Counted from the stretch's first letter, positions 1,308 to 63,292 are shown. The stretch: DNA of 64,000 bases from Nannocystis pusilla (GCF_051105105.1 NZ_CP185339.1); one strand, 5' to 3'. Notes: a model not told the origin generated them from the letters alone. Made by a program: numbers and translations.

Positions 1308-1372
1308 AAGGACATGTCCCTCAAGTCATGTCTTTTCAAACACAACTAGGACCTGTCCTTTCGACCATCCAT
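1308..1372. repeat. Palindromic decamer element array (GGACATGTCC, AGTCATGTCT, GGACCTGTCC)
   Basis: GGACATGTCC at 1310-1319 and GGACCTGTCC at 1349-1358. Lies 3' of the methyltransferase gene and ends with the shared terminal motif CTGTCCtttcgaccaKCC. Confidence 0.7.
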
Positions 1373-1376
1373 CCGC

Positions 1377-2138
1377 TCACACCGCCCGCAGCACGTAGAA
1401 CGAATACCCGTAGTCCTCGGCGTGCGCGCGGAACATCGCCACCTCCGCCTCCGTCTCGCGGATGGCCGCGCGCATCGCCGCATCCGCCGTCGCACGGACC
1501 TCTTCCACCCGGCGCAGGCGCGGCCCGTAGTAGTTGTCCCACCACGCTCGCGCCGGCAGCCGATGCACGCCCAGCACCGCGAACCCCGCCTCACGCGCGC
1601 GCGCGGCGTTCGCCGCCTCGGTCCCCATCGTCGGATAACCGGCGGCCCAGAACTCGCGCGCCGCCGCGGCCGGCGTCTCGGTCCACCAGCTCGCCTCCGA
1701 GATCACCGCGAGCCCGCCCTGGGCCAGCAGCGGTCGCCAGCGCTGCACCGCGCCGGTGAACGTCAGGTGGTACGCCGCCCCCTCCGACCACAGCAAGTCG
1801 ATCGATCCCGCCGGCCAGTCGAGCGCTCCGAAGTCGGCCTCCACCGCGCGCACCAGCGACGCGAGCCCGCGCTCGCGCGCTCGCGCCTCGAGTTGGTCGA
1901 GGAACGCCCGCAACGCATCCACCGCGATCACCGGCACCCCGAACGTCTCCGCCAGCAGCAGCGCCCCGGCCCCCGCCCCGCAGCCGAGGTCGGCGATCCG
2001 CGGCGCCTCCGGCAGCGCCGGCAAGCCCGCCAGGAGCTCCCGGCTGAACTGCAGGTCTCCCGGCCCCATGCGCTCGAGCCCGCGGTGCAGCTCGATGAGC
2101 GCGGCCATCATCTCTTCTCCCGTGGGCTCGTCCGCCAT
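1377..2138 (-). CDS. Class I SAM-dependent methyltransferase
   Basis: The C-terminal 253 aa of ORF 1377..3509 starts MADEPTGEEMMAALIELH and carries the SAM-binding motif DLGCGAGAGALLLAE. Upstream codons have low GC3, so the start is placed at the ATG at 2138. Confidence 0.8.
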   Translation of the reverse strand: MADEPTGEEMMAALIELHRGLERMGPGDLQFSRELLAGLPALPEAPRIADLGCGAGAGALLLAETFGVPVIAVDALRAFLDQLEARARERGLASLVRAVEADFGALDWPAGSIDLLWSEGAAYHLTFTGAVQRWRPLLAQGGLAVISEASWWTETPAAAAREFWAAGYPTMGTEAANAARAREAGFAVLGVHRLPARAWWDNYYGPRLRRVEEVRATADAAMRAAIRETEAEVAMFRAHAEDYGYSFYVLRAV

Positions 2139-2197
2139 GCCGCCACGATACCACCCTTCTCCGCCCTCGATCGCCCGCCCGATCACGTGACTCTTCC

Positions 2198-2258
2198 ACC
2201 ATGTCCCTTCAGACATGCGCATGCTCCCGCCTCGCGGTGTATGCTCGCGCGCATGTCC
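2198..2258. repeat. Palindromic element cluster in the divergent promoter region (ATGTCC, AGACATGCGC, GCATGTCC)
   Basis: CATGYCC-type half sites lie between the methyltransferase start (2138) and the hydratase start (2253). Confidence 0.5.
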
Positions 2259-3038
2259 ACGGACCGCCGGATCTCGACCCAGACACACGGCCACGTGCGG
2301 ATGATCGGCCTCGACCGCGCCGCCAAGCGCAACGCCTTCGACCTCGCCATGCTGCGGCAGCTGGCCGAGGCCTTCACTGAATTCGAGGACGACCCGCAGC
2401 TGCGCTGCGCCGTCGTGTTCGCCCACGGCGACCACTTCACCGCCGGCCTCGACCTCGCCGAGGTCGGCCCCGCCGTCGCGCGCGGCGAGCCGTTGTTCCC
2501 CGCCGGCGCCGTCGACCCGCTCGGCCTCTACGGCCGCGTCCGCAGCAAGCCGGTCGTGCTGGCGGTCCAGGGCTACTGTCTGACCCTCGGCATCGAGTTG
2601 ATGCTGGCCGCCGACATCCGGATCGCCGCCAACGACGCGCGCTTCGGCCAGATCGAGATCCGGCGCGGGATCTTCCCGTTCGGCGGCGCCACCTTGCGGC
2701 TGCCGCAGGTCGCCGGGTGGGGCAACGCGATGCGCTGGCTCCTCACCGGCGACATGTTCGACGCGGCCGAGGCGCTGCGGATCGGCCTCGCGCAGGAAGT
2801 CGTCGAGCCCGGGCGGCAGGTCGAGCGGGCCGCCGAGATCGCGGCCACGATCGCCGCCCAGGCCCCGCTCGGCGTGCGGGCGACCCTCGCCACCGCCCGG
2901 ACCACCGTCGAGCGCGGCCCCGAAGCCGCCCTCGCTGGCATGATGGCCGAGGTCCGCGCGATCATGGGCTCGGACGACGCGCGCGAGGGCATGCAGTCGT
3001 TCGTCGAGCGCCGGGCGGCGAAGTTCACCGGCGCCTGA
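2253..3038 (+). CDS. Enoyl-CoA hydratase/isomerase (crotonase) family protein
   Basis: Translation MSTDRRISTQTHGHVRMIGLDRAAKRNAF, then FAHGDHFTAGLDL, then ELMLAADIRIAANDARFG. The crotonase fold pattern is recognisable. Confidence 0.85.
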   Translation: MSTDRRISTQTHGHVRMIGLDRAAKRNAFDLAMLRQLAEAFTEFEDDPQLRCAVVFAHGDHFTAGLDLAEVGPAVARGEPLFPAGAVDPLGLYGRVRSKPVVLAVQGYCLTLGIELMLAADIRIAANDARFGQIEIRRGIFPFGGATLRLPQVAGWGNAMRWLLTGDMFDAAEALRIGLAQEVVEPGRQVERAAEIAATIAAQAPLGVRATLATARTTVERGPEAALAGMMAEVRAIMGSDDAREGMQSFVERRAAKFTGA

Positions 3039-3459: not shown

Positions 3460-3580
3460 CCGGGCATGTCCTCCGCGACATGCCCCATCGGACCTGCCCT
3501 CTTTGCCATGCCCCGAGAGCCACCCGCGCTCTCGGGGCATTTCGTCTAACTGTCCCGCAGGCCATGTCCCGCGGGACAGC
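3460..3580. repeat. Palindromic decamer element array with about seven half-sites (GGGCATGTCC, GACATGCCCC, GGACCTGCCC, GCCATGCCCC, GGCCATGTCC, GGGACAGC)
   Basis: Fills the convergent intergenic gap between the lipoprotein stop (3455) and the epimerase stop (3584). Confidence 0.75.
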
Positions 3581-7888: not shown

Positions 7889-7935
7889 TTCGCATGTCCT
7901 TTCCGCCATGTCGCAACCGACATCCGGCTAAAAGC
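7889..7935. repeat. Palindromic element (CGCATGTCC, GCCATGTCG, GACATCCGG)
   Basis: Lies immediately 3' of the kinase stop. Confidence 0.6.
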
Positions 7936-11875: not shown

Positions 11876-11885
11876 TCGAGGCGCT

Positions 11886-11936
11886 CCCATGCCCGAGAGG
11901 ACATGTCCGTATGAACATGCCCTCCCGGACAGCCCG
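11886..11936. repeat. Palindromic decamer array (GGACATGTCC, GAACATGCCC, GGACAGCCC)
   Basis: Sits in the convergent gap between the sanA-like stop and the cyclase stop. Period is 14 nt. Confidence 0.75.
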
Positions 11937-14878: not shown

Positions 14879-15421
14879 TCAGTGGAACTCCACCACGAGC
14901 CGGTTGGGGTCGCCGTCGTTGGTCACGTCGACGTAGTAGAGGTCGCCGGGCGCCATCACCCCGCCGATCAGCACGCCGCGCTCGATCGTCTTGTCGAACG
15001 GCGTGGACGAGCGGATCACGGCGTGGCCGCGCTCCGAGTCGAACTCGGCCAGGTCGAACGAGCCGACCACCTCGCGCGGGCCGCGGATGACGCTGGCGAT
15101 GCCGTGGCTGCCGGTCTGAAAGTGCAGGAAGTCGGCGCCACGGTGGATGAGCGCCTTGCCGGGCCCGCCGTGGTACCACAGCCGCATCATCTCGATGCCG
15201 AGCTTGAGCCGGATCGGCTCGACGTTGGCGTACGACTCGCCGACCATCCGCTCGATCTCCATCCACTTCGACAGCGGGAACCACCGCCCCATGTCGATGT
15301 CGGCCAGCAGCGCTGTGGCTCGGCGACCGGCCACGATGTTGAGGTTGACGCACGCCTGGGCGAAGCCGCCCATCAGCGCCCCGTGGACCACCGGCTCGCT
15401 CGGCTCGCTCGGCTCGCTCAT
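14879..15421 (-). CDS. Hypothetical 180 aa protein, possibly a ligand-binding sensor
   Basis: Translation MSEPSEPSEPVVHGALMGGFAQAC. GC3 is high, and the start overlaps the GRAS-like stop as ATGA. Confidence 0.65.
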   Translation of the reverse strand: MSEPSEPSEPVVHGALMGGFAQACVNLNIVAGRRATALLADIDMGRWFPLSKWMEIERMVGESYANVEPIRLKLGIEMMRLWYHGGPGKALIHRGADFLHFQTGSHGIASVIRGPREVVGSFDLAEFDSERGHAVIRSSTPFDKTIERGVLIGGVMAPGDLYYVDVTNDGDPNRLVVEFH

Positions 15422-16512
15422 CCCGCCTCCCCCGCGAACGCGAACACCGCGATGATCGGCACCCCGCGGTAGGACAGCCGCACGAGCCCGGAGCTGACCG
15501 AGGAGCGGCAGTACTCGGGCAGGTCGACGTCGAGGTCGATCGCCGGGTACGGCACGAAGCCCGACTTCTTCAGCCGGAGCAGCCACGACTCGAGCGTCTC
15601 GTGGCGCTCGGTGCGGAAGGCGTCGCTGGTGCCGAGGATGTCGCGGACCTCGCGGCCGAAGAAGCCCTCCTTGATGGCGAACTTCTCGTCGGGGGACGCG
15701 TCGCTGCGGTCGACCAGGTCGAACACCGTCGCGAAGTGCTGCCAACAGTGGTGCATGCGCCGGGTCAGGTGCTCGGTGTCGTGGTCCGAGCTCGGCTCGA
15801 CCAGCGTGAACACCCGCGGCCTCAGGGCCCGCAGCCGCCGCAGCAGGCGGGTGCGCGCGTCGCTGTCGGGGCCCGTGGTGTGGTGCAGCGTGTAGGCCGC
15901 GTTGATCGACAAGCTCCCCTCGGCGAGCGCCTCGAAGTGCGCGTAGTCGGCATCCTCGCAGACCTCGATCAGCTTGACCAGCGGATAGATCTCGATGTCG
16001 AACGGCAGCTCGGCGCGGACCTCGTCGATCGCGGCCACGCCCTCGTTCAGGGCGGTGCGGTTGGGCTCGAGCGCGATCACGCGGAGGCGCTCGATCTTGC
16101 CGGGGTCGCGCGCGAGCGCCCGCAGCAGCGCGACGATCTGCAGGCCCTTGCCGATCCCGATCTCGAGCAGCGCCGGCGTGCTCGACTGCCGCATCGCGTG
16201 CACGAGGTACTGGTTGGCCAGCGCGTAGCCCTGCGGCACCGCCGGGATCGCCCGCTGCAGCAGCGTGAACAGGTCGATCTGCGGCCGCTTCTCGGCTTGC
16301 AGGTACAAGTTCCGCCCCGACAGCAGGTTGCGGTCGATCCGTCGCAACAGCGACTCGGCGACGATGTGGGACAACAGCGCGTCGCTCGGGACATCGACGT
16401 CGAGGGCGTCGAGGAGCTGGCTCGCTATCACCGTCTTGGCGACCTGCTCGCGATGCCGGCGAATGTCCTGGCACGCGGCCAAAATCAGCTTGTAGCGGTC
16501 CTCGTAGAGCAT
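15418..16512 (-). CDS. Bacterial GRAS-like domain protein (Rossmann-fold, methyltransferase-related)
   Basis: A VHIID-like block reads ALLEIGIGKGLQIVALLRALARDPGKIERLRVIALEP, and a SAW-like C-terminus reads RTERHETLESWLLRLKKSGFVPYP. The start is placed at MLYEDRYK because upstream codons have low GC3. Confidence 0.6.
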   Translation of the reverse strand: MLYEDRYKLILAACQDIRRHREQVAKTVIASQLLDALDVDVPSDALLSHIVAESLLRRIDRNLLSGRNLYLQAEKRPQIDLFTLLQRAIPAVPQGYALANQYLVHAMRQSSTPALLEIGIGKGLQIVALLRALARDPGKIERLRVIALEPNRTALNEGVAAIDEVRAELPFDIEIYPLVKLIEVCEDADYAHFEALAEGSLSINAAYTLHHTTGPDSDARTRLLRRLRALRPRVFTLVEPSSDHDTEHLTRRMHHCWQHFATVFDLVDRSDASPDEKFAIKEGFFGREVRDILGTSDAFRTERHETLESWLLRLKKSGFVPYPAIDLDVDLPEYCRSSVSSGLVRLSYRGVPIIAVFAFAGEAG

Positions 16513-16805
16513 GCGCCGCAGACTGAAGGTCACACAGGGGATCCGCCTTGGCAAGCTGATGCGCACCCGATCGTGGCCGAGAAGATTATCTCGGCCCTCG
16601 CGCGGAAACGCGCCGCGTAGCCTGGCGCAGGCCCCGTCGGCCTCTGTCTCAAAGACCACCCAGCGGCGCTACCGGACCGCGGGCCACTGCGCAGGTCGCG
16701 TGCGGCAGAGGACCGTGACGCACACGACGGACTGCATCTTGAGACATGGTCCGAAAACCATGACGCGGCGCGGCGAATCCGGCAGAAAGTGGCCGAAAGC
16801 AGGCC

Positions 16806-18744: not shown

Positions 18745-19488
18745 GTGAGCGGCCGGCGCTCGGACGGACCTGTCCCATCGGACACCCTCGCGGCCCTCGA
18801 CCGCGCCCGCGATCAGCCCGGCCCGCACCTCTGGTTGGTCCCCAGCCCGCCCGCCGCCGGCGACGCCGACGAGGCCCTGCGCGAGCTCGACGACCTGCTC
18901 GTCCGCGGCGAGCTCGACGAGCCCGCCGTCGCTCGCCTGGTGGCCCTGGCGCCGCGCGCCCCGGGCCGCCTACGGGCCGTCGTCGCCGCCCTCGCGGCCG
19001 CCGGCAGCCCCGCCGCGGTGGCCGGCCTGCTCACCCTGCCGCAGGTCCCCGGCGCGCTCGCGGCGGCGGCCCGCGCCCTCGCCCGCGGCCTCACCCGCGC
19101 CCTGCCCGGCTCCGCCGCCGCCCCGGTGTTCTTCGCCCTCGACTTCCGCGGCTCGCGGGCGCGGCCGTTCCCCGACCTGCTGCGGCGCGCCCAGCTCGTC
19201 GCCGCCGATCCGAGCGGCGCCCTGCGCCTCAACGTCCTCCGCGTCGACGGCAAGCCCGCCTATCGCCTGTCCTTTTGGCCAGACACGATCCCGCCGCGCC
19301 CGCGCGCCGAGCTCGCCCGCGCCTGCGCCGCCGACCTCGCGCTGCTCCACGGCCGCCTCGCGCGCCTCCGCGGCGCCCGCCTGTGGCTGAACGGCTTCTG
19401 CTTCCCTGACGACGGCCCGGTGTCGGTCGCCGCCCAGGGCCACCTGCTGGCCGCGTGGCTGACATGGTCCGAGGGACATGCGCCGTGA
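18745..19488 (+). CDS. Hypothetical protein, coupled upstream of the AAA ATPase gene
   Basis: GC3 is high. A GTG start overlaps the smpB stop; the first codons contain a GGACCTGTCC element, so the exact start is uncertain. Confidence 0.5.
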   Translation: MSGRRSDGPVPSDTLAALDRARDQPGPHLWLVPSPPAAGDADEALRELDDLLVRGELDEPAVARLVALAPRAPGRLRAVVAALAAAGSPAAVAGLLTLPQVPGALAAAARALARGLTRALPGSAAAPVFFALDFRGSRARPFPDLLRRAQLVAADPSGALRLNVLRVDGKPAYRLSFWPDTIPPRPRAELARACAADLALLHGRLARLRGARLWLNGFCFPDDGPVSVAAQGHLLAAWLTWSEGHAP

Positions 19489-19510
19489 GACATGACCTGA
19501 AGGACACCCC
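19461..19510. repeat. Palindromic decamer array (GACATGGTCC, GGGACATGCGC, AGACATGACC, GGACACCCC)
   Basis: Spans the junction between the hypothetical gene and the AAA ATPase gene. Period is 14 nt. Confidence 0.65.
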
Positions 19511-20981
19511 GTTCGCGCGCGCGCGCGTCCGCCTGGGCGAGGCGCTACAAGCCGGCGCGCGCGGCCTGGGGCTGCGCGCGGTCGACGAGGCGCGGGCGCT
19601 GCGGCTGTGCGAAGACACAGGCGAGCGCCTCGACTGGCCGGTCCACACCTGGAGCGCCGCCGGCGGGCGCGACGGCCTCGGCGCGCCCGAGCCGCTGCTC
19701 GACCTCCTGCGCGGCCTCCTGCGCGACCCCGATCCCGGCCTGTGGGTGCTGCTCAATCCGCCCCCGCTGGAGCCCGTCGCCTTGCGGGCCCTCCGCGAGC
19801 TCGCGCAGCGCAGCGTCGGTCCGGCGGTCGTCGTCGTCGGCGACCTCGCGCCTGCGCTCGTCGCCATCCCCGAGCTCGAGCTGCTGGAGCTCGAGCTGCC
19901 CGACGCCGACGAGCTCACCGGCCTCGCGGCCGACCTCGTCGACGAGCTGCGGATCGCCGGCCGTCCCGGCCCGGCCGCCGCGCTCGACCGCCGCGCGTCG
20001 CAGCTCGCCCACGCCGCCCTCGGCCTGTCGGAGCACCAGGCCCGTCGACTGCTGCGCCGGGCCGCCCACGCCCCCGCCGACGACGCCGCGCTCGCCGAGC
20101 TGGGCGCCGGCAAGGCCGAGCTGCTGCGCCGGGGCGGCCTGCTCGAGCGCGTCGAACCTGTCCCTTCAGACATGCTCGGCGGCCTCGCCCAGCTCAAGCA
20201 GTGGCTGGCCCGCCGCGCCCTCGCCCTCCGGCCCGAGGCCCGCGCCGCGGCGATCCCCGACCCGCGCGGCGTCCTGCTCGTCGGCGTGCAGGGCTGCGGC
20301 AAGAGCCTGGCCGCCCGCGTCTGCGCCCACGCGCTCGGCCTCGGCCTCCTGCGGCTGGAGCCGGGCCGGCTCTACGGCGGCACGCTCGGCGAGAGCGAGG
20401 CCAACCTGCGCCGCGTCACCGCCACGGTCGAGCGCATCGCTCCGGTCGCGCTGTGGATCGACGAGCTCGACAAGGGCCTGGCCGGCAGCGAAGGTCCGGC
20501 AAGCGACGGCGGCACCGCGGCGCGCGTGCTCGGCGGCCTGCTGACGTGGCTGCAGGAGCGCCGTCGTCCGGTGTTCGTGGTCGCCACCGCCAATCAGGTC
20601 ACGCGCTTGCCGCCCGAGCTGACACGTCGGGGCCGTCTCGACGAGATCTTCTTCGTCGATTTGCCCGATGCGGACGAACGCGCTGCCATCGCGGAGATCC
20701 ATCTCGAGCATGCGCCGCGCTCACACATGGGCGCCGCCCCGGTCCTCGCTGATCCGTTGCCCGACCTCGTCGACCTCGTACGCGCGGCCGACGGACTCTC
20801 GGGCGCCGAGATCGAGGGCGCGATCGTGGAAGCTCGCCTCGACGCGTTCGCCGAGTCGCGACCGCTCGCGCGCCGCGACCTCGCTCGCGCGCTCACCGCG
20901 ACCATCCCGCTCAGTCGCAGTCGTGCCGGCGAAATCACGGCCCTGCGTGCGTGGGCGAGCGCTGCGGCCCGCAGGGCTTGA
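19485..20981 (+). CDS. AAA+ family ATPase
   Basis: Walker A appears as GVQGCGKS, Walker B as ALWIDELD, and an arginine finger as RRGRLDEIFFV. The GTG start overlaps the upstream stop as GTGA. Confidence 0.8.
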   Translation: MRHDLKDTPFARARVRLGEALQAGARGLGLRAVDEARALRLCEDTGERLDWPVHTWSAAGGRDGLGAPEPLLDLLRGLLRDPDPGLWVLLNPPPLEPVALRALRELAQRSVGPAVVVVGDLAPALVAIPELELLELELPDADELTGLAADLVDELRIAGRPGPAAALDRRASQLAHAALGLSEHQARRLLRRAAHAPADDAALAELGAGKAELLRRGGLLERVEPVPSDMLGGLAQLKQWLARRALALRPEARAAAIPDPRGVLLVGVQGCGKSLAARVCAHALGLGLLRLEPGRLYGGTLGESEANLRRVTATVERIAPVALWIDELDKGLAGSEGPASDGGTAARVLGGLLTWLQERRRPVFVVATANQVTRLPPELTRRGRLDEIFFVDLPDADERAAIAEIHLEHAPRSHMGAAPVLADPLPDLVDLVRAADGLSGAEIEGAIVEARLDAFAESRPLARRDLARALTATIPLSRSRAGEITALRAWASAAARRA

Positions 20982-24015: not shown

Positions 24016-24090
24016 CCTAAAAGACATGCCCGTTCGGGCATGTTCAAAAGGGCATGCCCTCACGGACATGCCCTTTCGTCCATTCCCCGC
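24010..24090. repeat. Palindromic decamer array, five units at 14 nt period (AGACATGCCC, GGGCATGTTC, GGGCATGCCC, GGACATGCCC, GTCCATTCCC)
   Basis: Best-ordered copy of the family in the window, in the convergent gap between the PepSY-like stop and the dienelactone-hydrolase stop. Confidence 0.8.
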
Positions 24091-52579: not shown

Positions 52580-52927
52580 ATGGGCCCCCTGCTCGACTAC
52601 CTGCCGCTCGTCGCAGCCGTCGGGCTGATCGGGGTCCTCGCCGGCCTGGTCCGTGCGCGCGCGAGGCAACAGGCCGCGCCCGACGCCGGCGAGAGTCTGG
52701 TGCAGCTGCGCCCGCGTCAGCCTGTCGACACCGGCGGCCTCCTCGCGCTCGCCGGCCTCGGCTTCGCGCTCGCGCTGGCCCTGGTCCTGTTCGCGCCGAC
52801 CGCCGCGGTCTGTCTGTCCAGCACGACATGTCCGGAAGGACCTGCCCTTTGGGTCAGCGCCGCCGGCCTCGGTCTGCTGGGCCTGGCGACCGCGATCGCC
52901 TGGCCTTCGCTGACGCGCGCGCCATGA
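52580..52927 (+). CDS. Small membrane protein with a palindromic element embedded in-frame
   Basis: The ATG directly follows the macro-domain stop. Two TM segments. Codons 52824-52858 (acg aca tgt ccg gaa gga cct gcc ctt) have low GC3 and equal GACATGTCCggaaGGACCTGCCC. Confidence 0.5.
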   Translation: MGPLLDYLPLVAAVGLIGVLAGLVRARARQQAAPDAGESLVQLRPRQPVDTGGLLALAGLGFALALALVLFAPTAAVCLSSTTCPEGPALWVSAAGLGLLGLATAIAWPSLTRAP

Positions 52928-53650
52928 TCCGCCCGCGCGCCGCCGCCTCGCCTGCGCCCGCGTCGGCGAGCGGCGCCGTCTCGCTGCGCGTCTCGGCGAA
53001 TGATTCTGCCCCAAGCGTCGGCGACGTAGCGCTGCCGGACGAAGTCTCGCGCGAGCTCCAGTCGCAGCTTCGCGGCATCGAGGTTCGTGCGAGCTCCTCG
53101 CTCGGGCTCGCGTCGCGGGACTTCGCGCTGCGATCGTCCACTTCGTTCTCGCGTCGCGTCGAAGAAACGCCGGCCATCTCCTCGCCCTACGCCGCTTCGA
53201 CGCCCCCGCTTCGTAGCGACGTTCGAGGCAAGCGCGAGCGTACGGTCGGAGGTCAGGTCACTGCAACCGTCCGCTTCGCTCATGCACGCAGTCGACGCGA
53301 CGCTGGTGCTCTCCTCGCGCGAGGCCGCGTCGCCGCCGCTTTTTCATCGCGGCTCCGAAGCAAGCGCGAGCACTCGCTTTGCGCTCGCGTCGCCGCGACC
53401 GTCCGCTTCGGTCATGCATGCGGTCGACGAGACGCGGACGAGTTCCTCGTCCGAGACCGCGTCGCCGCCCGCACTTCCTCGCGACCTCGACGTAAGCGCG
53501 AGCGCCCGGCCCGAGGTCGCGTCGCCGCATCTCCTTCCTCGCGGCTTCGATGTGAGCGCGAGCTCTTCGTCCGAGGCCGTGTCGCGGGGCGGCGCGCTGC
53601 GACTGTCCCCGCTCCGTCTCGGTCGCGTCGCGCACGCGAGCTCGTTCCCC
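52928..53650. repeat. Degenerate tandem repeats of about 66 nt (GCTTCG..CATGCA..GTCGACG..AGCGCGAGC..GCGTCGCCGC)
   Basis: At least five copies. In translation they give a 22-aa Ser/Ala/Pro-rich period. One copy contains a GACGTTC variant at 53218. Confidence 0.6.
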
Positions 53651-53652
53651 CG

Positions 53653-54878
53653 TCGCAGCATCCTCGGCACCGCGACGTCGCCCGTCGCGCCTTGTGTCCT
53701 CTTCTTCGCCCTCGCGCTCGGCTGCGGCGCGCCGCCCACGGGTGTGCGCGCCGAACCGGGAACGCTGGTGTTCACCCCGGCGGCGGAGCGGCTCGAGCTG
53801 CGGCTCGTGAATCACGGCGCGGCGCCCGTCCCGTTGACGCGGATCCGCTTCGACACCCGTACCCCCGACTGGGGCGCCTTCTCGATCGAGAACCGCGAGT
53901 ACCCGCGGGAGATCGCTGCCGGCGGAGCCGTGAGCCTGCGCCTCCGCGTCGACCGCGACCACTTCGATCGCACCGGCGCCTCCCGCTCCGGCAGCGCGCG
54001 CCTCCTCTTTGCGGCGGGAGAGGCGCCCCAGATCGTCGAGCTCCGCTATGAGCCGCCCGATCTCGGGGGCGATCTGCGGCGCACGGCGATCCGCACCGCC
54101 CTGGCGCTCGCGCTCGTCGCGCTGGCGTGGATCTCGACGCGGCGTACCCGGCTGAACTGGACCGCGTGGCTGCCGGTGGTGGCCGTCCTGGCGCTGTTCC
54201 CGTTCGGTCCGGGCCTGTGCTTCGACAGCGTCGGCAGCAGCCTCTCCGCCGCGGACGTTCGAGCAGTGCTCCGCGGGTCGGGGAGGTACTTCGCTGTCGC
54301 TGATCGCCGTGGGCGAAGGCTGGCTCGTCTATCTCGTCGCTCTCGTGCTCGCCGGTCTCGGTCGCCTCGTCGACCGGGCTGCGCTGGCCCGCCGCCTCGC
54401 GTCGCGCGACCTCGCCCTCGCCGCCGCATTCGCCGGTCCATTGCTGGCCTTTGGCACCCTCGATCCACGGCGACTCGTGGGGGAGCAAGCAGCGAGGCTC
54501 GTCGGCGGTGCTGCGATCCCCCCCGCCTGGGGAATCTTCGTGCAACCGATCGCCGCGGCCGTCGCCCTCGCGGTCGCGGCCGCCCCGCCGGCAGGACGAC
54601 TCGAGCGGCTCGCCTTTGCGGCGGCGTTCGTCGCCTGTTTCCTCGGCGGCGGTTTGCCCGCGGCGGCGCTCGCCGGCAGCGGCCACGGCCTCGTGCTGTT
54701 CATCGGCGCAGTCGTGGCGGCGGCGAAGATCGCTGCGGTCGTGTGGTTCGTGCAGCGGCTGCACGCGTCGGCCACCGGCTCGCGTGCGCGCGCTGCTCTC
54801 TTCTTTCTCGAGCGGGCCGCGATGCCCCTGGCGATCGCGAATTTGCTGGTGACGTTGGCCTACGGCCTGCTGCGGTGA
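53653..54878 (+). CDS. Lipoprotein/membrane protein (N-terminal Ig-like domain plus C-terminal polytopic TM). Frame disrupted by +1 at 54254 (GACGTTC). Start unresolved.
   Basis: LFFALALGC lipobox with no canonical start codon nearby. The frame reads through ...SLSAADV and continues in the +1 frame as SLSLIAVGEGWLVYLVALVLAGLG. Confidence 0.45.
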
Positions 54879-55263
54879 CTCGAGATGCGAGCAGGGCCGG
54901 GGGGCCAGGTCCCGAGAGACTGGTGCGGCGCTGCGCACTCAGCGCGCAGCGTGTCCGGTGTCTCCAACGTAGCTTTTTTCCGAAGCTGGTGTTAGCGTGG
55001 CCGGCGAAAAGCCTTGACCGCAGGCTTGCCCGGCGAGCGCGGATGCTAGTTCGGACGCCAAACCTCGTAATCCGAGTGAGACGGGACACACGCGACGCCG
55101 TTACGGCCCCACGGACCTGGGCTGAGATGGCGTCGCCGCAGGCTCGCGTGAAGAACCTGTCCCAAAGATATGAGCAGGCGCGGTATTGTACCCAGACCAA
55201 CATCGGCGGGAGCTGCCCCTCCGATCGCGGTCGCGGCCCACGTGGGCCACGGGGAGGCGAATA

Positions 55264-56193
55264 ATGGCAACCACGATCGCCCAGATCGGTGGATTTGAAC
55301 TTTGGGACATCCTGCAACTTGCGCAGACATCGCGCATGTCGATCAAGCTGTCCGTCGAGTCGCCGCATGGCGTCGGCGCGATGTTTTTCCAGGGCGGCAA
55401 CCTCGTCCACGCCGAGACCGGCGCGGCCCAGGGTGACGACGCCGTCAACACGATCCTCGACTGGCGCGAGGGCAGCGTCTCGTCTTCGCAGTTGCCCGAG
55501 AACTGCCCGCAGACGGTGCGCCACACCTCGATCGTCGCGTTGTTGATGGACCGGGCGCGTCAGCGCGACGAGGCTTCGCGCAACGAGCCGCCGCCGCGCA
55601 GCGAACCGCCGCGCAGCGAGCCGCCGCCGCGAAGCGAGCCGGCGCCACGCGCCGCGACGCCGCCCTCCCCTCCGCCGGTGCCGGTGATCGAGAAGCCGCA
55701 GCGAGCTGCGCCGGTCACCGTCCCACCACTTCCGCCGCTGCCCGTCACCCCACCGACTCCGGCCTACGCGGCCGCCCCCAACGTTGCAGCGCGCGACAAG
55801 GAGCTGTCAGACATGGACCTCAAGGTCGTGAAGGCCATCCTCGAGGAGCTCGACGACCACCTCATGGGCGGCCTCATCAGCGTCGACATCATCAGCAAGG
55901 CCTCGGGCATGTCGCTCGCGGGTATCAACTCGGCGCCCAAGGCGTGCGCCATGTTCAACCGCCTGTCCGAGCAGCTGCACAACGCGCTGACCCGCTCGGA
56001 AGACGCCCTCGCCAAGGGCATCAACAAGTTCATCATCGAGGGCGACAACGGCCTCCTGATCTTCGTGATCGAGCTCGACGAGCGCCACCGCTGGGCGATC
56101 CTCGTCGACGGCGTCAAGGCGCAGCTCGGGTGGGTGTTCGTCATCATCCCCGAGCTCCAGCCGCGCCTCATCGCCGCGCTGAAGGGTCGCTGA
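55264..56193 (+). CDS. DUF4388-like N-terminal domain, Pro-rich linker and roadblock/LC7-like C-terminal domain
   Basis: GGGGAGG ribosome-binding site. Translation MATTIAQIGGFELWDILQLAQTSRMSIKL. The linker has PPRSEPPRSEPPPRSEP repeats. Confidence 0.6.
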   Translation: MATTIAQIGGFELWDILQLAQTSRMSIKLSVESPHGVGAMFFQGGNLVHAETGAAQGDDAVNTILDWREGSVSSSQLPENCPQTVRHTSIVALLMDRARQRDEASRNEPPPRSEPPRSEPPPRSEPAPRAATPPSPPPVPVIEKPQRAAPVTVPPLPPLPVTPPTPAYAAAPNVAARDKELSDMDLKVVKAILEELDDHLMGGLISVDIISKASGMSLAGINSAPKACAMFNRLSEQLHNALTRSEDALAKGINKFIIEGDNGLLIFVIELDERHRWAILVDGVKAQLGWVFVIIPELQPRLIAALKGR

Positions 56194-56197: not shown

Positions 56198-56270
56198 ACT
56201 GTCCTGAGGGACATGTCCTTATGGGCATGTCCCTCGGCACCTGCTCCCGAGCACCTGCCCGAACAAACCT
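56198..56270. repeat. Palindromic decamer array (GGGACATGTCC, GGGCATGTCC, GCACCTGCTCC, GCACCTGCCC, ACCTGGCC)
   Basis: Starts 5 nt after the upstream stop. Confidence 0.75.
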
Positions 56271-56288
56271 GGCCGATCGGACAGCGCC

Positions 56289-58160: not shown

Positions 58161-58407
58161 CGCCGCAGCGCTGGTCCGCCGGCTACAACCCGACCCGAGT
58201 CCGCATATGACCCGAAGGACAGGCGTCTCGCCGCGGCGTTGTCCGCCCGAGGTCCGCACTCGAAGTGCAGCGCTTCGCTCACCCAGCGCTGCGCACGACT
58301 CTGCTCGAGCCGCGCGGCTGGACGGCTCGCCCGCGCGAGGTCCAGGTACGACGAGCGCGCCCGAGCTGCGGCGAGCGCAGCGCGGGCGCGACGTGTCGGG
58401 CCGATTG

Positions 58408-58440
58408 GTCATGTCCCCGGGACCTGTCCGCGGGGACACA
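58408..58440. repeat. Palindromic element (GGTCATGTCC, GGGACCTGTCC, GGGGACACAC) 3' of the ACP gene
   Basis: Period is 13-14 nt. Confidence 0.6.
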
Positions 58441-58782: not shown

Positions 58783-59598
58783 TCAAAAACTCAGCCCGAG
58801 GCGCTCGCGCGCCGAAAACAGGCGAACGACGTTGTCGGCGAAACCGAGGCCCCTGTCCAGTAGCAGAATCTGCCCCTTGACCCCGTCCATGAGACCGCTG
58901 CAGAGGGCCAGCGCCGCGGCCGCGACCTCGTCGGGGTCGATGAACCAGCCTTCCGAGTAGTACTTCTTGCAGAACGGCACGAAGTCGGGCCCGAAGGTGG
59001 CCTCCAGCGATGCAGTCTCGACCGGGTTCGCGCGCAGGATGTTGATGCGAACATCCTCACTGAGCAGATCTGCCGTGAGGTAGCGACAGAAGGTCTCCAT
59101 CACGGTCTTGCTCGCGGCCACGAAGTCGTAGCCCGGGAGGAAGTACTCAGGCCCGCGCGACGACATTCCCACCGCGTAGCGGGGCCAGCGACCGAAGGTC
59201 TCGCGGATGGCCTGCAGGTAGCCGACGAACGGCCACGCGCTGTAGCCGAGGCTGCGGAGGAAGCTCTTCTTGTCGAGGTCCTCGTGCGACTTGCTGACGT
59301 GGGCGAACGACACGTTGCTGATCAGCGCGAACACGGCGTCGTGGTCGCGCTTGACCGCCTCCATCAGCGCCTCGGTGTCCTCGTCTTGCGACGCGTCGGC
59401 CTCGACGATCGTCGGCGCCGGCGCGCCCGCGGCGTCGAAGCGGGCCCGCAGCTCGTCTTCGTCGGCCGAGCCCCAGCGGTGCGTCAGGTACACGTGCGCG
59501 CCGTACTTGCCGAACAGCAGGCCGGTCGCCAGGCCGATGCCCGCCGTCCCGCCGGTGACGATGACGGCCTTGCCCTTGAGGTCGTTGCGGAGGATCAC
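58783..59598 (-). CDS. SDR family oxidoreductase, paralog B (atypical FabG/FabL-like)
   Basis: GGAAGGAG ribosome-binding site plus GTG start. Translation VIVTGGTAGIGLATG; catalytic YDFVAASK. Confidence 0.8.
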   Translation of the reverse strand: MILRNDLKGKAVIVTGGTAGIGLATGLLFGKYGAHVYLTHRWGSADEDELRARFDAAGAPAPTIVEADASQDEDTEALMEAVKRDHDAVFALISNVSFAHVSKSHEDLDKKSFLRSLGYSAWPFVGYLQAIRETFGRWPRYAVGMSSRGPEYFLPGYDFVAASKTVMETFCRYLTADLLSEDVRINILRANPVETASLEATFGPDFVPFCKKYYSEGWFIDPDEVAAAALALCSGLMDGVKGQILLLDRGLGFADNVVRLFSARERLGLSF

Positions 59599-60410
59599 GC
59601 CGGAGCTCCTTCCTTGTCGCTGCCGCCGACGAGCCGCGGCCCGAGCGTGGCGACGTTGTCGACGAACGCCGCGCCGCGGTCGAGCGTCAGCACCTGCCCG
59701 CCCATGGCGTCGAACAGCCCGCTGCACAGCGCGAGGGTCGTGTCGGCGACCTCGTCGACGGTGCACGCGAACTCGGGGAACTTGCCCGCCAGCTCGCGCT
59801 GCTGGGCGGCGAACATCTGCTCGTAGCTCTCGGTCATCACCTGGCGGGTGCGCAGGGCGTTGACGATGCAGCCGTGCTCGTAGAGGTGCGTGCTCATGTA
59901 GCGCACGAACGTCTCGAGCACCGCCTTGGCCACGGCCACGTAGTCGTAGCCGGGGTAGTGCGTGTCGGGCCCGTCGGACGACATCGCCAGCGCGTAGCGG
60001 GGGTAGCGACCGAACGCGGCGTGCAGCGCCTGCAGGTAGCCGACGAACGGCCAGCTCGAGTACTCGAGGCTCTTGTACAGCGCGCGCCGGGTGTGCTTCT
60101 CCGGCCCTTCGCCGCGCTGGACCACGCAGACGTTGCTGATGAACGCCCACACGCCGTCGCACTCCTCCTTGAGCCGCGCGGTCAGCTTGTCGGTGTCCTC
60201 CTCGCGCGACGCGTCGGCCTCGAGCACCAGCGGCGCCGGGGCCCCGACGGCGGTAAAGCGGGCCTTGAGCTCGTCCTCGTCGGCCGAGCCCCAGCGGTGC
60301 GTCAGCACCGTGCGCGCGCCCTGGCGCCCGAACGCGAGCCCGCACGCGAGGCCGATGCCGCGCGTCCCGCCCGTGATCAAGACGACCCTGTCCTTGAAGT
60401 CATTGAGCAA
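59595..60410 (-). CDS. SDR family oxidoreductase, paralog A
   Basis: Translation VVLITGGTRGIGLACG; catalytic YDYVAVAK. About 55-60% identical to paralog B by eye. Confidence 0.8.
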   Translation of the reverse strand: MLNDFKDRVVLITGGTRGIGLACGLAFGRQGARTVLTHRWGSADEDELKARFTAVGAPAPLVLEADASREEDTDKLTARLKEECDGVWAFISNVCVVQRGEGPEKHTRRALYKSLEYSSWPFVGYLQALHAAFGRYPRYALAMSSDGPDTHYPGYDYVAVAKAVLETFVRYMSTHLYEHGCIVNALRTRQVMTESYEQMFAAQQRELAGKFPEFACTVDEVADTTLALCSGLFDAMGGQVLTLDRGAAFVDNVATLGPRLVGGSDKEGAPA

Positions 60411-60413
60411 GCG

Positions 60414-61190
60414 TCATCCTCCCTGGCCTGGCCCGTAGTTCGTGCGGATCCGCGCCACCGTCTCCGGGTCGGCGAAGCATACCTCGTGCATCATCGACTC
60501 GACCGTACGCGCCTCCTCGAAGGCGCGGCGGCGCGGCAACGCCAGCGCACGTTTCAGCAACAGCAGCGCAGCCCGCGGCTTGTCGGCGATCCGCGCCGCC
60601 ATGTCGAGCGCCCGCGGCAGCACCTCGGCGCGCGGCACGACCGCGTTGACCTGGCCGCGCCCGGCCAGCTGCTCGCCGCGGAAGTACTGCGAGCCGTACA
60701 GCATCTCGGCCCCGACGTACTCGCCGAACGCGAACTGCACGAGGCGCGTGGCGCCCATCCCCGGCGTGAAGCCGAGGTCCATGAAGTTGGCGCCGTAGCG
60801 GCTCTCGCGGGCCATCACGACCATGTCGCAGGCGAGGCCGAACACCAGGCCGCCGCCGACCGCGGGCCCCGCCATCGCGGCGATCGTCGGCACCGGCACC
60901 TCGAGCAGCGCGCGCGTCAGCAGCAGGTCGTACGGCGCGATCGTGCCGTCGGCGAGGCCGAGCAGGACGTCGCGGTCGCCGCCGGCGGAGAACACCTCGG
61001 GCAGGCCGGCGATCACGACCACGCGCACGTCGGCGCGCTGGCCGAGGTCCCCCAGCGCGCGCGTCAACACGGCGACGAACGCCCGGCCGAACGCGTTCTT
61101 GCCCGCCGCGTCGCGCATGGTCAGCACGGCCACGCCGTCGCGCTCGAGCGTCACCTCGACGAGGCTGTCTGTTTGGACATGCGCGTTCAT
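60414..61190 (-). CDS. Enoyl-CoA hydratase/isomerase, PksI/ECH2-like
   Basis: Crotonase fold. Translation MNAHVQTDSLVEVTLERDGVAVLTMRD...FSAGGD. Confidence 0.8.
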   Translation of the reverse strand: MNAHVQTDSLVEVTLERDGVAVLTMRDAAGKNAFGRAFVAVLTRALGDLGQRADVRVVVIAGLPEVFSAGGDRDVLLGLADGTIAPYDLLLTRALLEVPVPTIAAMAGPAVGGGLVFGLACDMVVMARESRYGANFMDLGFTPGMGATRLVQFAFGEYVGAEMLYGSQYFRGEQLAGRGQVNAVVPRAEVLPRALDMAARIADKPRAALLLLKRALALPRRRAFEEARTVESMMHEVCFADPETVARIRTNYGPGQGG

Positions 61191-61942
61191 TCCTGTCCTT
61201 TCAGCCTGGCGAACCACGGCGGCGCCTGCCCCTCGGCCAGCAGGGCCGCCAGCGCCGCCCGCAGCTCGGGGTCCTCGAGGTCGGCCGCGGTCTGGGCCAC
61301 CCCGCCCTGCCCGGCCGGCCCGGTGATCCTCTTGAGCGTCGCCACCGCCTGCGGGCGCGCGCGCAGCAGCGAGCGCATGAGCCCGCGCAGCGCCTTGTCC
61401 GGGTCGTCCGCGACCACATCGACGAGGCCCCACGGCTCGGCCTGGGCCGCGGTCACCAGCTCGCCGGTCAGCGCCAGCCGCCGGGTCCGCCGCGCGCCGA
61501 TCCGGGCCTCGAGCGCCGGGAAGATCACCGCCGGCACCAGCCCGTAGCGCAGCTCCGGCAGCGCGAACGTGGCCGCCGGCGCCGCCACCACCAGGTCGCA
61601 CGCGGCCGCCAGGCCGACCCCGCCGCCGCTGGCCGCGCCGGTGACCACCGCGATCGTCGCCAGCTTCGCGCTCGCCAGCAGCTCGAGGCAGCCGGCGAAG
61701 CGCTGCATCGCCTCGCGCATCTGCGCCGACGGGGTCCGCAGCGCCGCCGCGAGGTCCATGCCGGCGCAGAACTCGGGGCCCTCGCTGGCGATCACCAGCG
61801 CGCGCGCCGGTCCGGCGACCGCCTGCTCGACCGCGTCGGCCAGCGCGGCGATCCCGTCGGTGTCCAATGCGACATGTCCTCCGGGACCTGCCCCGAGGAA
61901 CAGCCGATGGATCAGCTCGCCCTCTTCGCAGCGGACGCGCAT
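61187..61942 (-). CDS. Enoyl-CoA hydratase/isomerase, PksH/ECH1-like
   Basis: Crotonase fold. Translation ALVIASEGPEFCAGMDL. The N-terminus contains a palindromic element copy (GACATGTCC..GGACCTGCCCC). The start is uncertain. Confidence 0.75.
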   Translation of the reverse strand: MRVRCEEGELIHRLFLGAGPGGHVALDTDGIAALADAVEQAVAGPARALVIASEGPEFCAGMDLAAALRTPSAQMREAMQRFAGCLELLASAKLATIAVVTGAASGGGVGLAAACDLVVAAPAATFALPELRYGLVPAVIFPALEARIGARRTRRLALTGELVTAAQAEPWGLVDVVADDPDKALRGLMRSLLRARPQAVATLKRITGPAGQGGVAQTAADLEDPELRAALAALLAEGQAPPWFARLKGQE

Positions 61943-62050
61943 CGGCTCACCGCTCCCGCGCAGGGGGACGAGGGGACGAGCGATCCGGCCGCGCGCCGAG
62001 GGGCGGCGCGGCAAGCGTGGCGAGGGGCGTGCGCGGCATGATTCTGGCCC

Positions 62051-63292
62051 TCAGGACAGGCGGTACTCCCGCTGGAAGCCGCGCACCGCGTCGAGCACGA
62101 GGCGGCCCTTGCCGGCGTAGGCGCGCTCGTAGAGCCCGCGCAGGCCCGACTGGTCGACCTCGTAGTCGCTCTGGTCGATGAAGGCGGCGCGCTGGCGCTC
62201 GAGCGCCTCGTACTCCTCGATGGTCAGCGGCATGCGGCGATCGAGGCCGGCGCCGACGCGCTGGCCCGCGACCTGCTCGCGCGCGCGCTCGCCGACGGTC
62301 GCGCGGTAGAACTCGGCGCACGAGCCCGAGCCGTAGGAGAAGATCGAGACCTTGTCGCCCGCGCGCAGCTCGGGGTCGGCGTCGATGAGGCCGAGCATGG
62401 CGATGAAGGTCGCCGAGGTGTAGGTGCCGCCGAAGCGCGAGTTGTAGCGCAGCGCCTGCTTCGACTTGCGCTCGAAGTGAGCCCTGGCCTCGCGCAGCGA
62501 CATCTCGTGCGGGCCGCGGCGGAGCAGCGCCCGGTGGGCCCGGAAGGTCATGCCGCCGAACGGCACGTGGTAGATGTGGCGCGCGAACTCGGCGTCGTAG
62601 TCGACCATGCCCGAGCGGGCGACGAAGTGGTCGTAGGCGCCCTCGAGCGCGTCGAGGTAGCCGTACAGGCTGGTGTCGGCGTGGCCGACCTCCTTCGTCG
62701 AGGTCGGGCGGTAGGTGTCGAAGATCTCCTGCGTCCAGTAGCCGCAGGTGTCGAGGTCGATCTCGAGGACGTTGGGCTGGGCGCTGACCAGCATCGCCGT
62801 GGCCGCCGCGCCGAGCACGTACTCCCACGGCTGGCCGAGGTGCACGCGGCTCTGATCGGTGCAGACCACCAGCGCCTTCTTGCCCGGCGCCGCGCCCGAC
62901 GCGACCCAGTGGGCCGCCATCATCAGGCCGCCGGTGCCGCCGTAGCAGGCGTGCTTGGTCTCGAAGTTGCGGCAGTTGGCGGTCAGCCCGCAGTAGCGCT
63001 GCACGTAGGTCGAGATCGGCTTGCCGAAGTCGACCGACGACTCGGTGCCGACGATCACGAGCTCGATGTCCTTGCGGTCCTCGGGCCGGACGATCTGCAG
63101 CGCGGCGTTGACCGCCATCGTCACCGGGTCTTCCCACGTCGGGTTGAGCGAGCGCTCGCTGACCCACAGCTCCTCGAGCGGGTGGCGCGGATCGTGATCG
63201 CGCGCCTCCGCGAGCAGCTTCATGTCGAGCGAGAGCGTGCACGGGTACGCCGTGATCCGCTCGATGCCCACGCGCGGCCGGTGGTGCGCCAT
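62051..63292 (-). CDS. HMG-CoA synthase-like beta-branching enzyme (PksG/CurD-type)
   Basis: Translation VGIERITAYPCTLSLDMKLLAEARDHDP...ACYGGTGGLMMAAHWV...SYGSGSCAEF. Confidence 0.85.
   Translation of the reverse strand: MAHHRPRVGIERITAYPCTLSLDMKLLAEARDHDPRHPLEELWVSERSLNPTWEDPVTMAVNAALQIVRPEDRKDIELVIVGTESSVDFGKPISTYVQRYCGLTANCRNFETKHACYGGTGGLMMAAHWVASGAAPGKKALVVCTDQSRVHLGQPWEYVLGAAATAMLVSAQPNVLEIDLDTCGYWTQEIFDTYRPTSTKEVGHADTSLYGYLDALEGAYDHFVARSGMVDYDAEFARHIYHVPFGGMTFRAHRALLRRGPHEMSLREARAHFERKSKQALRYNSRFGGTYTSATFIAMLGLIDADPELRAGDKVSIFSYGSGSCAEFYRATVGERAREQVAGQRVGAGLDRRMPLTIEEYEALERQRAAFIDQSDYEVDQSGLRGLYERAYAGKGRLVLDAVRGFQREYRLS

Follow-up and report, generated by a model that had tools for sequence, protein, structure and literature searches.

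Arrays of a 14-bp palindrome at gene 3′ ends in Nannocystis and their likeness to REP/BIME elements

Introduction

The closest described counterparts of the repeats analysed here are the REP/BIME elements (REPIN) of Enterobacteria, Pseudomonas and Stenotrophomonas, which are extragenic, present in hundreds to thousands of copies and lineage-specific in sequence. These imperfect palindromes form stem-loops and are concentrated in convergent spacers and at the 3′ ends of genes. Their clusters alternate in arm orientation and can be reiterated at a higher order along with flanking DNA; the arrays of Nannocystis are alike in all of these respects. One end of the REP palindrome also bears a conserved tetranucleotide, GTAG or CGTC (Di Nocera et al. 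2013, PMC3733652), and this tag is absent from both the unit profile and the array-end profiles of the repeats described here.

The window is a stretch of 64,000 nucleotides from Nannocystis pusilla (NZ_CP185339.1). A first-pass annotation had noted in it a dispersed family of short palindromic elements, which it read as REP- or MITE-like, as uptake-signal-like or as the operator array of a global regulator. The underlying observation is confirmed by our analysis, and the interpretation is partly supported.

Results

The repeat unit and its arrays

The self-complementary decamer GGACATGTCC occurs five times in the window (1310, 11899, 30965, 41738 and 56209) against 0.04 expected; of the seven perfect sites originally listed five are exact, and the two near 29701 and 39912 each carry a single mismatch (CGACATGTCC at 29700, AGACATGTCC at 39906). 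The degenerate form RRRCATGYCC has 25 matches against 1.7 expected, and TGYCC-N4-GGRCA has 17 against 0.28. Same-strand distances in the window peak at 14, 28, 42 and 56 nt (counts of 13, 7, 4 and 2), and the same peaks are found in 788 kb of Nannocystis DNA (308, 128, 102 and 41), where distances of 13 or 15 nt are nearly empty, and the spacing is thus strictly 14 nt and not the 13–15 nt first suggested. The repeat unit is a 14-bp palindrome, best read as TGYCC-N4-GGRCA, in strict 14-bp phase; units abut head to tail, so that their junctions read RCATGY and a 10-mer window across them reads GGACATGTCC.

A weight matrix trained on other genomes only, with the window excluded, found 17 arrays in the window at threshold 6 (0.13 in shuffles) and 25 at threshold 4 (0.47 in shuffles), which makes the earlier count of more than 20 loci a fair one. 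Motif density is 17-fold higher outside genes than inside. Arrays comprise 2–6 units with half-units at their ends, and the CCTG variants that had been described (GGACCTGYCC, GCACCTGCCC) are present, for example at 56237–56260. Some arrays are reiterated as higher-order modules of about 50–100 nt, as seen at 27603–27705 in the window and in two other loci (L087, 7717–7966; L027, 3669–4110). The arrays and related motifs of the window are as follows, with no strand assigned unless given.

1310–1372: two CATG units (1310–1333), one CCTG unit (1349–1358), then the asymmetric motif CTGTCC-TTTC-GACCATCC; a methyltransferase gene (1377–2138, minus strand) has its stop 5 nt away
2197–2220: two units, weak (score 16), in a divergent spacer
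3462–3513: four units, beginning 7 nt past the stop at 3455, between convergent genes
3565–3578: lone 14-mer unit TGTCCCGCGGGACA, in the same convergent spacer as the array at 3462–3513
7890–7913: two units, weak, 4 nt past the stop of a kinase gene (7886)
11885–11931: three units and a terminal half-unit GGACA, filling the 69-nt convergent spacer between 11875 and 11945; the minus strand as RNA has a predicted stem of about 19 bp
19460–19497: three units, across the stop/start junction of genes 18745–19488 and 19485–20981
22229–22261: two units and a half-unit, ending 8 nt 5′ of the ATG at 22269; near-identical among four strains
23994–24087: six units, filling the convergent spacer up to a dienelactone hydrolase gene (24098); the first two share sequence with the final codons and TGA (24013–24015) of a PepSY-like gene; length strain-dependent (116 vs 185 nt)
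27603–27622, plus strand: asymmetric motif TGACCTGTCC-CTTC-GACCAGCC, overlapping the TGA stop of a TetR gene
27652–27705, plus strand: three units, then the asymmetric motif; within a higher-order module of about 71–80 nt with two copies in the window and three in strain Na p29
29583–29725: degenerate cluster in a convergent spacer, with lone 14-mers at 29590–29603 and 29630–29643 and a unit plus asymmetric motif at 29700–29722
30965–30988: two units in a divergent spacer, about 8–15 nt upstream of a minus-strand gene start
39878–39920: three units, beginning 2 nt past the stop at 39876; the stop codon falls within a predicted stem
41696–41756: CCTG unit, GACCACGC motif and two CATG units, with co-directional genes on either side
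52824–52847: two units (CATG, then CCTG), where no gene was called with confidence
56200–56274: half-unit and five units (two CATG, three CCTG), beginning 7 nt past the stop at 56193; 13-bp stem in the first hairpin
58407–58438: two units (13-nt spacing) and a 14-mer, downstream of a minus-strand gene stop at 58453, which is 15 nt from the array end and 24 nt from the first unit
61870–61897: two units (CATG, then CCTG) and a half-unit, with co-directional minus-strand genes on either side

In the array-end profiles information falls to zero past the half-unit, the flanks hold no conserved sequence, and neither TIR nor TSD was found at array ends. A scan of the whole window against Rfam gave no covariance-model match at the gathering threshold.

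An asymmetric motif, CTGTCC-N4-RRCCAKC, had been put forward as marking discrete element ends. The motif itself is real, with three matches in the window against 0.02 expected, but only about 5% of array ends carry it and it is found both alone and in a sister lineage that lacks CATG arrays, and so it is not a general marker of element ends. It is a separate, minor and older motif.

Arrays are anchored to gene 3′ ends

The arrays are anchored to gene 3′ ends, chiefly between convergent genes. Convergent spacers hold 5.1 arrays per kb, co-directional spacers 0.9 and divergent spacers 0.34, which makes arrays about 15-fold denser in the convergent than in the divergent class. The median distance to the stop codon is 13.5–15 nt, with favoured offsets of +4, +9 and +14, and arrays frequently begin 0–15 nt past the stop or overlap it. 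In co-directional spacers 47 of 61 arrays lie nearer the upstream stop than the downstream start. The position after the stops of convergent pairs described in the first-pass annotation, and the association with gene ends that it proposed to check, are thereby borne out; its preference for divergent promoters is not, since arrays are rare there and its example at 2197–2220 is weak.

Neighbouring units covary as hairpin arms

Adjacent units covary as array stems of 10–14 bp with 4-nt loops, and compensated TGTCG/CGACA stems are present. As neighbouring units are mutually reverse-complementary, either strand, as DNA or as RNA, can fold into hairpins; among neighbours there are 38 perfect reverse complements and 18 direct copies. 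The 14-pair helix between units shows 76.3% pairing, compared with 72.6 ± 0.6% in shuffles, and its covariation of 0.213 against 0.157 was exceeded in none of 500 shuffles. Position 3 of one unit covaries with position 8 of the next (OR 3.1, p = 2e-5), whereas the reciprocal pair, position 8 with the following position 3, reaches only OR 1.39 (p = 0.21). A covariation test of the palindrome within units showed none, positions 3 and 8 of the same unit being anticorrelated (OR 0.41). The covariation between units is partial, with about two of the six variable arm positions typically mismatched.

As RNA the arrays are predicted to fold down to −25 to −45 kcal/mol, with z-scores of −3.5 to −6.0 for five of eight array segments and of only −1.5 and −1.7 for two plus-strand segments; array-free 3′ regions fold as stably as array-bearing ones. 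No U-tract or T-run follows the arrays, and a terminator scan found five candidates against 4.8 expected, which is chance, with one array arm flagged. Sense and antisense arrays fold equally well, and the strand bias proposed for checking is not seen; G·U pairs on the sense strand (94, vs 76 A·C) show no significant excess, and array hairpins contain no GNRA or UUCG loops. No feature points specifically to RNA as the working form of the hairpins, and hairpin formation alone leaves the invariance of CATG unexplained.

The family within Nannocystis

Among the matches listed for the two-unit pattern, 92 of 120 stretches come from at least nine Nannocystis assemblies, and those listed from outside the genus are a single ascertained match each. 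Within the genus arrays occur about once per 3.5 kb, loci averaging 3.3 arrays per 8 kb; the genome-wide total of a few thousand copies is an extrapolation from about 0.85 Mb of sampled DNA and not a direct count. In about 20 kb of syntenic DNA from the sister lineage (L140/L141, 75% amino acid identity) there are no arrays, and an orthologous convergent spacer measures 5 nt there instead of 82–151 nt. Four strains of about 97% identity have all seven arrays over 20 kb in common, with no difference in the presence of whole arrays; only copy number varies. Most array positions are also kept between species at about 90% identity. Across 14 orthologous arrays the CATG core has diverged by 2%, the arms by 17% (70% of it transitions), the spacers by 36% and the flanks by 8.6%, rates which indicate that the core is under purifying selection and that the spacers drift. 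We found no description of these arrays in the literature, in keeping with the first-pass annotation, which did not recognise them as a described myxobacterial repeat and was right to place the DNA among the myxobacteria; the family is apparently undescribed and, in this dataset, apparently confined to the genus Nannocystis.

Discussion

Our preferred interpretation, which we hold to be somewhat better than evenly probable, is that the arrays are a REP/BIME-like extragenic palindromic family acting as symmetric 3′-end boundary hairpins, with a conserved core that is read by a protein. Hairpins in the transcript would block 3′ exonucleases or help to terminate transcription from both directions, and the invariant core would be recognised by a putative sequence-specific protein; the arrays probably have such a partner. 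A candidate reader is a host DNA- or hairpin-binding factor like the BIME binders (gyrase or IHF-like), and an alternative candidate is the enzyme that formerly spread the units. The family may have expanded in the Nannocystis ancestor, with present change mainly in the copy number of units and modules. The REP-like reading proposed at the outset agrees with what was found, namely high-copy, extragenic, hairpin-forming palindromes at gene 3′ ends in clusters with alternating arm orientation, and the lack of the GTAG/CGTC tag counts against it. REP systems also have a cognate RAYT gene, for a Y1 HUH transposase, which the repeats usually flank; a weak test over about 0.85 Mb found no RAYT.

It is possible, if rather unlikely, that the hairpin potential is a by-product of palindromic sites and that the arrays are double-stranded DNA platforms for a protein reading RRRCATGYYY every 14 bp, in the manner of a cooperative metbox array of MetJ placed at gene ends, where the protein might act as a roadblock to transcription, as a supercoil or gyrase site, or as a nucleoid organiser between convergent genes. 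The near-invariance of CATG across species beside drifting spacers, the purine/pyrimidine identity held by the arms, the strict phase, the missing U-tract and the relatively common 42-bp spacing (four helical turns) all fit such a platform, as does a symmetry so full that sense equals antisense even where one strand alone is mRNA. Independent sites should not covary, however, and yet neighbouring units and even their variable flanking spacers are complementary; it also speaks against a platform that the palindrome within units shows no covariation, positions 3 and 8 being even anticorrelated, and no candidate protein was found. We regard as improbable that the arrays are selfish, currently mobile non-autonomous elements (REPIN- or MITE-like), spread by a transposase that recognises hairpins, for instance a Y1 HUH enzyme of RAYT type, which might cut at CA^TG and add units of 14 nt, with stop-codon proximity reflecting just where insertions are tolerated or targeted. 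The expansion within a single genus, extrapolated to a few thousand copies, beside a sister lineage without arrays, the variable unit and module number between 97%-identical strains, the perfectly mirrored or identically repeated spacers at some loci, which point to recent palindromic or tandem duplication, and the same tetranucleotide bounding each unit would all be expected of mobile elements. Against this, no whole array has been gained or lost among the four strains (7 arrays, 20 kb) and most positions are shared by different species, the core is conserved site by site at orthologous loci, which favours selection over recent copying, conserved ends, TIR and TSD are absent, and anchoring about 15 nt from the stop even in long spacers exceeds simple tolerance. 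A tblastn search of 0.79 Mb with an IS200 TnpA query gave no Y1 transposase match (best E = 2.8), which is a weak test.

The remaining proposals, that the arrays serve a global transcription factor as operators or work as DNA uptake signals, are suggested by a short, over-represented palindromic motif in tandem and are very improbable. Operators would be expected at promoters, but the spacers that hold them are depleted of arrays, and co-directional arrays adjoin the upstream stop rather than the downstream start; uptake sequences are unlike the phased arrays and their 17-fold enrichment outside genes.

Beyond the boundary-hairpin interpretation, we suggest only tentatively that the arrays are the cis-element of a protein-dependent gene-end marking system, or the substrate of a new kind of hairpin-directed enzyme that adds 14-nt units at CA^TG. 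In the first case a sequence-specific factor recognising RRRCATGYYY every 14 bp, whether in duplex DNA, in extruded DNA hairpins or in RNA stems, would set the 3′ ends of transcripts or ease torsional stress at several thousand gene ends. Either, if true, would amount to a "gene-end code" defined by sequence and specific to one lineage, for which no counterpart has been described.

Comparison with known systems

A MITE with discrete ends, as once proposed, is not supported: array length varies from 2 to 6 units, nothing is conserved past the half-unit, there is no TIR or TSD, and no insertion polymorphism was seen over 20 kb among the four strains of about 97% identity. The arrays likewise do not fit a rho-independent terminator, since the hairpin is present but the U-tract and the sense/antisense asymmetry are absent; the arrays are like terminators in placing a stable hairpin soon after the stop, one that could work bidirectionally at convergent genes, and differ in conserving sequence beyond structure and in forming several phased hairpins. 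Inverted uptake-sequence pairs, which act as terminator hairpins, occur at gene ends in Neisseria and Haemophilus. The DUS and USS pairs share with the arrays an over-represented motif on the 10-mer scale and hairpins at gene ends, whereas DUS and USS are non-palindromic, common within genes, not in phased arrays and read by a competence receptor.

MetJ metboxes (2–5 × 8 bp) and the p53 half-site RRRCWWGYYY resemble the arrays in their abutting palindromic units with an invariant centre and degenerate purine/pyrimidine arms. The decamer GGACATGTCC is the consensus p53 half-site, a likeness of sequence alone because bacteria are not known to have a p53-family protein. Unlike these operators, the arrays lie outside promoters at thousands of loci and their neighbouring units covary as hairpin arms. 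Cyanobacterial HIP1 (GCGATCGC) is similarly a lineage-specific, highly iterated palindrome kept at orthologous sites, but it is a single octamer, mostly intragenic, and neither arrayed nor tied to gene ends. From REP/BIME elements, the nearest of these systems, the Nannocystis family differs in its unit of just 14 bp, fused in exact phase through shared CATG junctions, in the full symmetry of its arrays, and in positions kept between species with a core under site-specific purifying selection.

Phased arrays of a 14-bp palindromic unit

The window contains 25 matches to RRRCATGYCC, the half-site consensus of the first-pass annotation, against 1.7 expected, and five copies of the decamer GGACATGTCC (1310, 11899, 30965, 41738 and 56209), against 0.04 expected; seven perfect decamers had been proposed, the other two being one-mismatch variants. 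The proposed tandem arrangement is real, but the spacing is not a range of 13-15 nt: same-strand distances of 14, 28, 42 and 56 nt between CMTGYCY motifs occur 13, 7, 4 and 2 times in the window, where distances of 13 and 15 nt are single cases only, and in 788 kb of Nannocystis DNA the same four distances occur 308, 128, 102 and 41 times, an exact phase of 14. The position weight matrix that had been suggested as a check was trained on the arrays of other genomes only, with the window excluded, and found 17 arrays in the window at a threshold of 6 and 25 at a threshold of 4, whereas dinucleotide shuffles of the window gave 0.13 and 0.47, respectively, which rules out chance or base composition as the source. 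The arrays are not explained by any Rfam family, tRNA or TRF-type tandem repeat in the window.

The 788 kb hold 228 arrays, with two, three, four, five and six units in 118, 35, 39, 29 and 7 cases. The unit profile reads GGRCATGYCC, followed by a 4-nt, relatively A+T-rich spacer that is almost free in sequence. We rejected a reading of each unit as an independent 10-bp palindromic site, since pairs inside the unit lack covariation, its positions 3 and 8 show an anticorrelation (OR 0.41, p = 1e-5) and the arrays end in half-units: outward from both array ends a half-unit (GGNCA) is conserved, and beyond it the information content is zero. This makes TGYCC-N4-GGRCA, a 14-mer palindrome with 17 copies in the window (0.28 expected), the natural unit, and the CATG junctions arise where such units abut head to tail. 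Conserved flanks, terminal inverted repeats and GTAG/CGTC tags were all absent from the Nannocystis array profiles. In some spacers arrays and linkers are reiterated as higher-order modules; at three Nannocystis loci (L087, L027 and L105) tandem modules of about 50-100 nt, each a 2-3-unit array plus linker, fill long convergent spacers and look like BIME clusters.

Features of the array family in the window, in Nannocystis loci (L027, L087, L105) and in the syntenic sister lineage (L140, L141)
Window 3565, 29590 and 29630: isolated 14-mers TGYCC-N4-GGRCA
Window 23994-24015: array overlapping the last codons and stop of a gene
Window 27603-27705: cluster of higher-order modules
L087 7717-7966: cluster of higher-order modules of about 71 nt
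L027 3669-4110: cluster of higher-order modules
L105 7030-7263: cluster of higher-order modules
Window 1349-1372, 27603-27622 and 27680-27705: asymmetric motif ACCTGTCC-N4-GRCCAGCC
L140 14400-14610 and L141 6996-7180: the same asymmetric motif

Arrays are placed at the 3' ends of genes

Genes were called with a codon-bias caller, for which stops are exact and starts conservative. Arrays had been reported directly after the stop codons of convergent gene pairs, and this is borne out: convergent spacers contain 91 (5.1 per kb), co-directional spacers 61 (0.9 per kb) and divergent spacers 11 (0.34 per kb). Divergent promoters, the other location put forward, thus carry some arrays but are not a preferred site. 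The median distance from the stop codon to the start of the first unit is 13.5 nt, with preferred offsets at +4, +9 and +14, and the stop often falls within the flanking spacer or, where the first unit is degenerate, within its TG. TGA accounts for 152 of the 184 array-adjacent stop codons (83%) in the Nannocystis loci and the window, and is often part of the array register. Of the 61 arrays in co-directional spacers, 47 are closer to the upstream stop (median distance 15 nt) than to the downstream start (211 nt). Where the spacer is 30 nt or longer, about a third of the gene ends in the window bear an array, and RRRCATGYYY is 17-fold denser outside genes than inside.

Distribution, evolution and an asymmetric motif

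The window has a G+C content of 72% and a gene content typical of myxobacteria. It matches three Nannocystis pusilla-like assemblies at about 97% identity, and one of its proteins shares 100% identity with one from N. pusilla. Scanning 185,579 species genomes with GRNCATGYCC-N4-GRNCATGYCC gave at least 120 matching stretches; 92 among the matches listed are from Nannocystis (N. exedens, N. pusilla, N. punicea, N. radixulma, N. bainbridge, sp. RBIL2 and three MAGs), scattered along whole chromosomes. The Nannocystis 8-kb blocks average 3.3 arrays, that is 2.3 on top of the ascertained one, and hence a density of about one per 3.5 kb, the same as in the window, while among the matches listed each block from outside the genus holds essentially the ascertained match alone. 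Extrapolated from block density, an 11-13 Mb Nannocystis genome would carry a few thousand arrays. With merely 14 matching stretches among 2.9 million viral contigs, a phage origin was rejected. The sister lineage (75% protein identity) has no CATG arrays over about 20 kb of syntenic DNA, and an orthologous convergent spacer measures 5 nt there against 82-151 nt in N. pusilla.

Array positions are kept between species that share about 90% identity in the flanks. A comparison of 14 orthologous arrays that align without gaps (49 units) gave a divergence of 2% for the four core positions, 17% for the arms (70% transitions), 36% for the spacers and 8.6% for the flanks. Since the spacers are still 64% identical, the units were aligned to true orthologues, and by this comparison the CATG core is under purifying selection. 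Restriction-site avoidance or methylation pressure was rejected, as CATG is not avoided in genes (observed/expected 1.14). Between strains about 97% identical, no whole array was gained or lost over 20 kb; the differences are in copy number, 116 versus 185 nt at 24 kb and two versus three modules at 27.6 kb. These indels (55 + 14 nt and about 71 nt) are not clean multiples of 14 and we therefore do not claim unit-wise slippage.

The asymmetric motif CTGTCC-N4-RRCCAKC, put forward as a shared element end, is real and enriched (three in the window against 0.02 expected), but it was rejected as a general marker of ends because it is found at only about 5% of them and also exists independently. 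It lies in sense to the neighbouring genes in 11 of 13 co-directional cases, and in the sister lineage five to six tandem copies occupy one spacer in which CATG arrays are absent. The motif is separate from the arrays but related to them, and may be an older member of their kin.

Predicted hairpin pairing between neighbouring units

Position 3 of one unit covaries with position 8 of the next (OR 3.1, p = 2e-5), whereas the reciprocal combination, position 8 with position 3 of the next, gave merely OR 1.39 (p = 0.21). The most frequent successions join GGACATGCCC and GGGCATGTCC, in either order, and neighbouring units are perfect reverse complements in 38 cases versus perfect direct copies in 18. 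In 147 distinct unit pairs, the first pair of each array, a 14-pair helix composed of flanking spacer and arm, loop, then arm and flanking spacer was paired at 76.3% (72.6±0.6 in shuffles), with 217 double changes (153±12) and a covariation of 0.213 (0.157), each exceeded in 0 of 500 shuffles; the within-unit palindrome showed no excess of covariation over shuffles. Compensated stem variants such as TGTCG-N4-CGACA are present.

Array segments are predicted to fold with -25 to -45 kcal/mol, and their stems frequently run on across spacers; the folding z was between -3.5 and -6.0 for five of eight segments and only -1.5 and -1.7 for two plus-strand segments. Arm pairing is imperfect, typically with two mismatches among six variable arm positions. 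Mirror spacers over all array centres show a modest excess of complementary matches (1.23 versus 1.07), and long perfect palindromes are therefore a minority, with 20 perfectly complementary mirror spacers against 4.9 expected. Fold energies of 3' ends with and without arrays were -31.5 and -30.8 kcal/mol, in a comparison where gene starts are truncated and some 'spacers' are really coding.

Other features of the window

Two stretches lack a confident gene and contain long or overlapping ORFs with no Pfam match. One, of about 755 nt, includes a 149-bp tandem repeat (2.2 copies, 93% matches) with an overlapping 74-bp repeat at 44388-44792; the other, of 2.7 kb with two long ORFs (52580-55335), includes 132-bp and 60-bp tandem repeats at 53178-53585. 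TRF repeats of 30-33 bp at 30812-30915 and 15-33 bp at 55577-55664 are probably within coding sequence. A bacterial GRAS-domain protein (15418-16533, minus strand; Pfam E = 1e-35), kept in four strains, adjoins a SpoIIE-type phosphatase gene. At 59595-63292 (minus strand) a gene resembling HMG-CoA synthase (62051-63292) heads a run of genes; together with a gene for an enoyl-CoA hydratase elsewhere (2241-3038, plus strand), it may belong to a beta-branching or isoprenoid cassette.

Possible role and comparison with known systems

Several readings suggested for the arrays do not agree with their structure or placement. A MITE with discrete ends is contradicted by the lack of terminal inverted repeats and conserved flanks and by the variable length of 2-6 units; the operator array of a global regulator by a density lowest in divergent spacers and by proximity to upstream stops; and an uptake signal by phased arrays concentrated outside genes. 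A canonical terminator was rejected, as no T-run, and hence no U-tract, follows the arrays. None of these readings is supported.

The principal rival is a platform bound purely as duplex. RNA-specific signatures were rejected: GNRA and UUCG loops are not enriched in the array hairpins, the sense strand has no significant surplus of G·U over A·C (94 versus 76), and sense and antisense folds of the arrays do not differ in stability. The constraint on the arrays is therefore symmetric, which is consistent with a role at the DNA level or with use on both strands. Taken together, the selected CATG core and the arm covariation suggest a structure read by a sequence-specific protein, and we regard pure duplex binding as rather unlikely. 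On balance we lean towards 3'-end boundary hairpins with a protein partner, in which the hairpin structure would be read by that protein.

Nannocystis genomes (11-13 Mb) appear to spend several thousand sites on one short phased palindrome, a handle on how high-GC bacteria without canonical U-tract terminators end or protect transcripts. The arrays could also provide myxobacterial engineering with a compact, natural bidirectional insulator, metagenomics with a genus-specific marker and, through their polymorphism, a means of strain typing. The first-pass annotation did not recognise the family as a described myxobacterial repeat, and we likewise found no description in the searchable literature.

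The REP-like reading of the first-pass annotation holds, in that the arrays resemble REP/BIME elements in being high-copy, extragenic, hairpin-forming and located at 3' ends or between convergent genes, with alternating arms and higher-order clusters. A tblastn search of 0.79 Mb for a RAYT/IS200 transposase, a weak test with an IS200 TnpA query, gave no match (best E = 2.8). Unlike REPs, the arrays lack the GTAG/CGTC tag, and REP membership failed on this point. They also differ from classical REPs in the per-site selection that orthologous comparisons show on the 4-bp core, which speaks for a function in the host and for a specific protein that reads the arrays.
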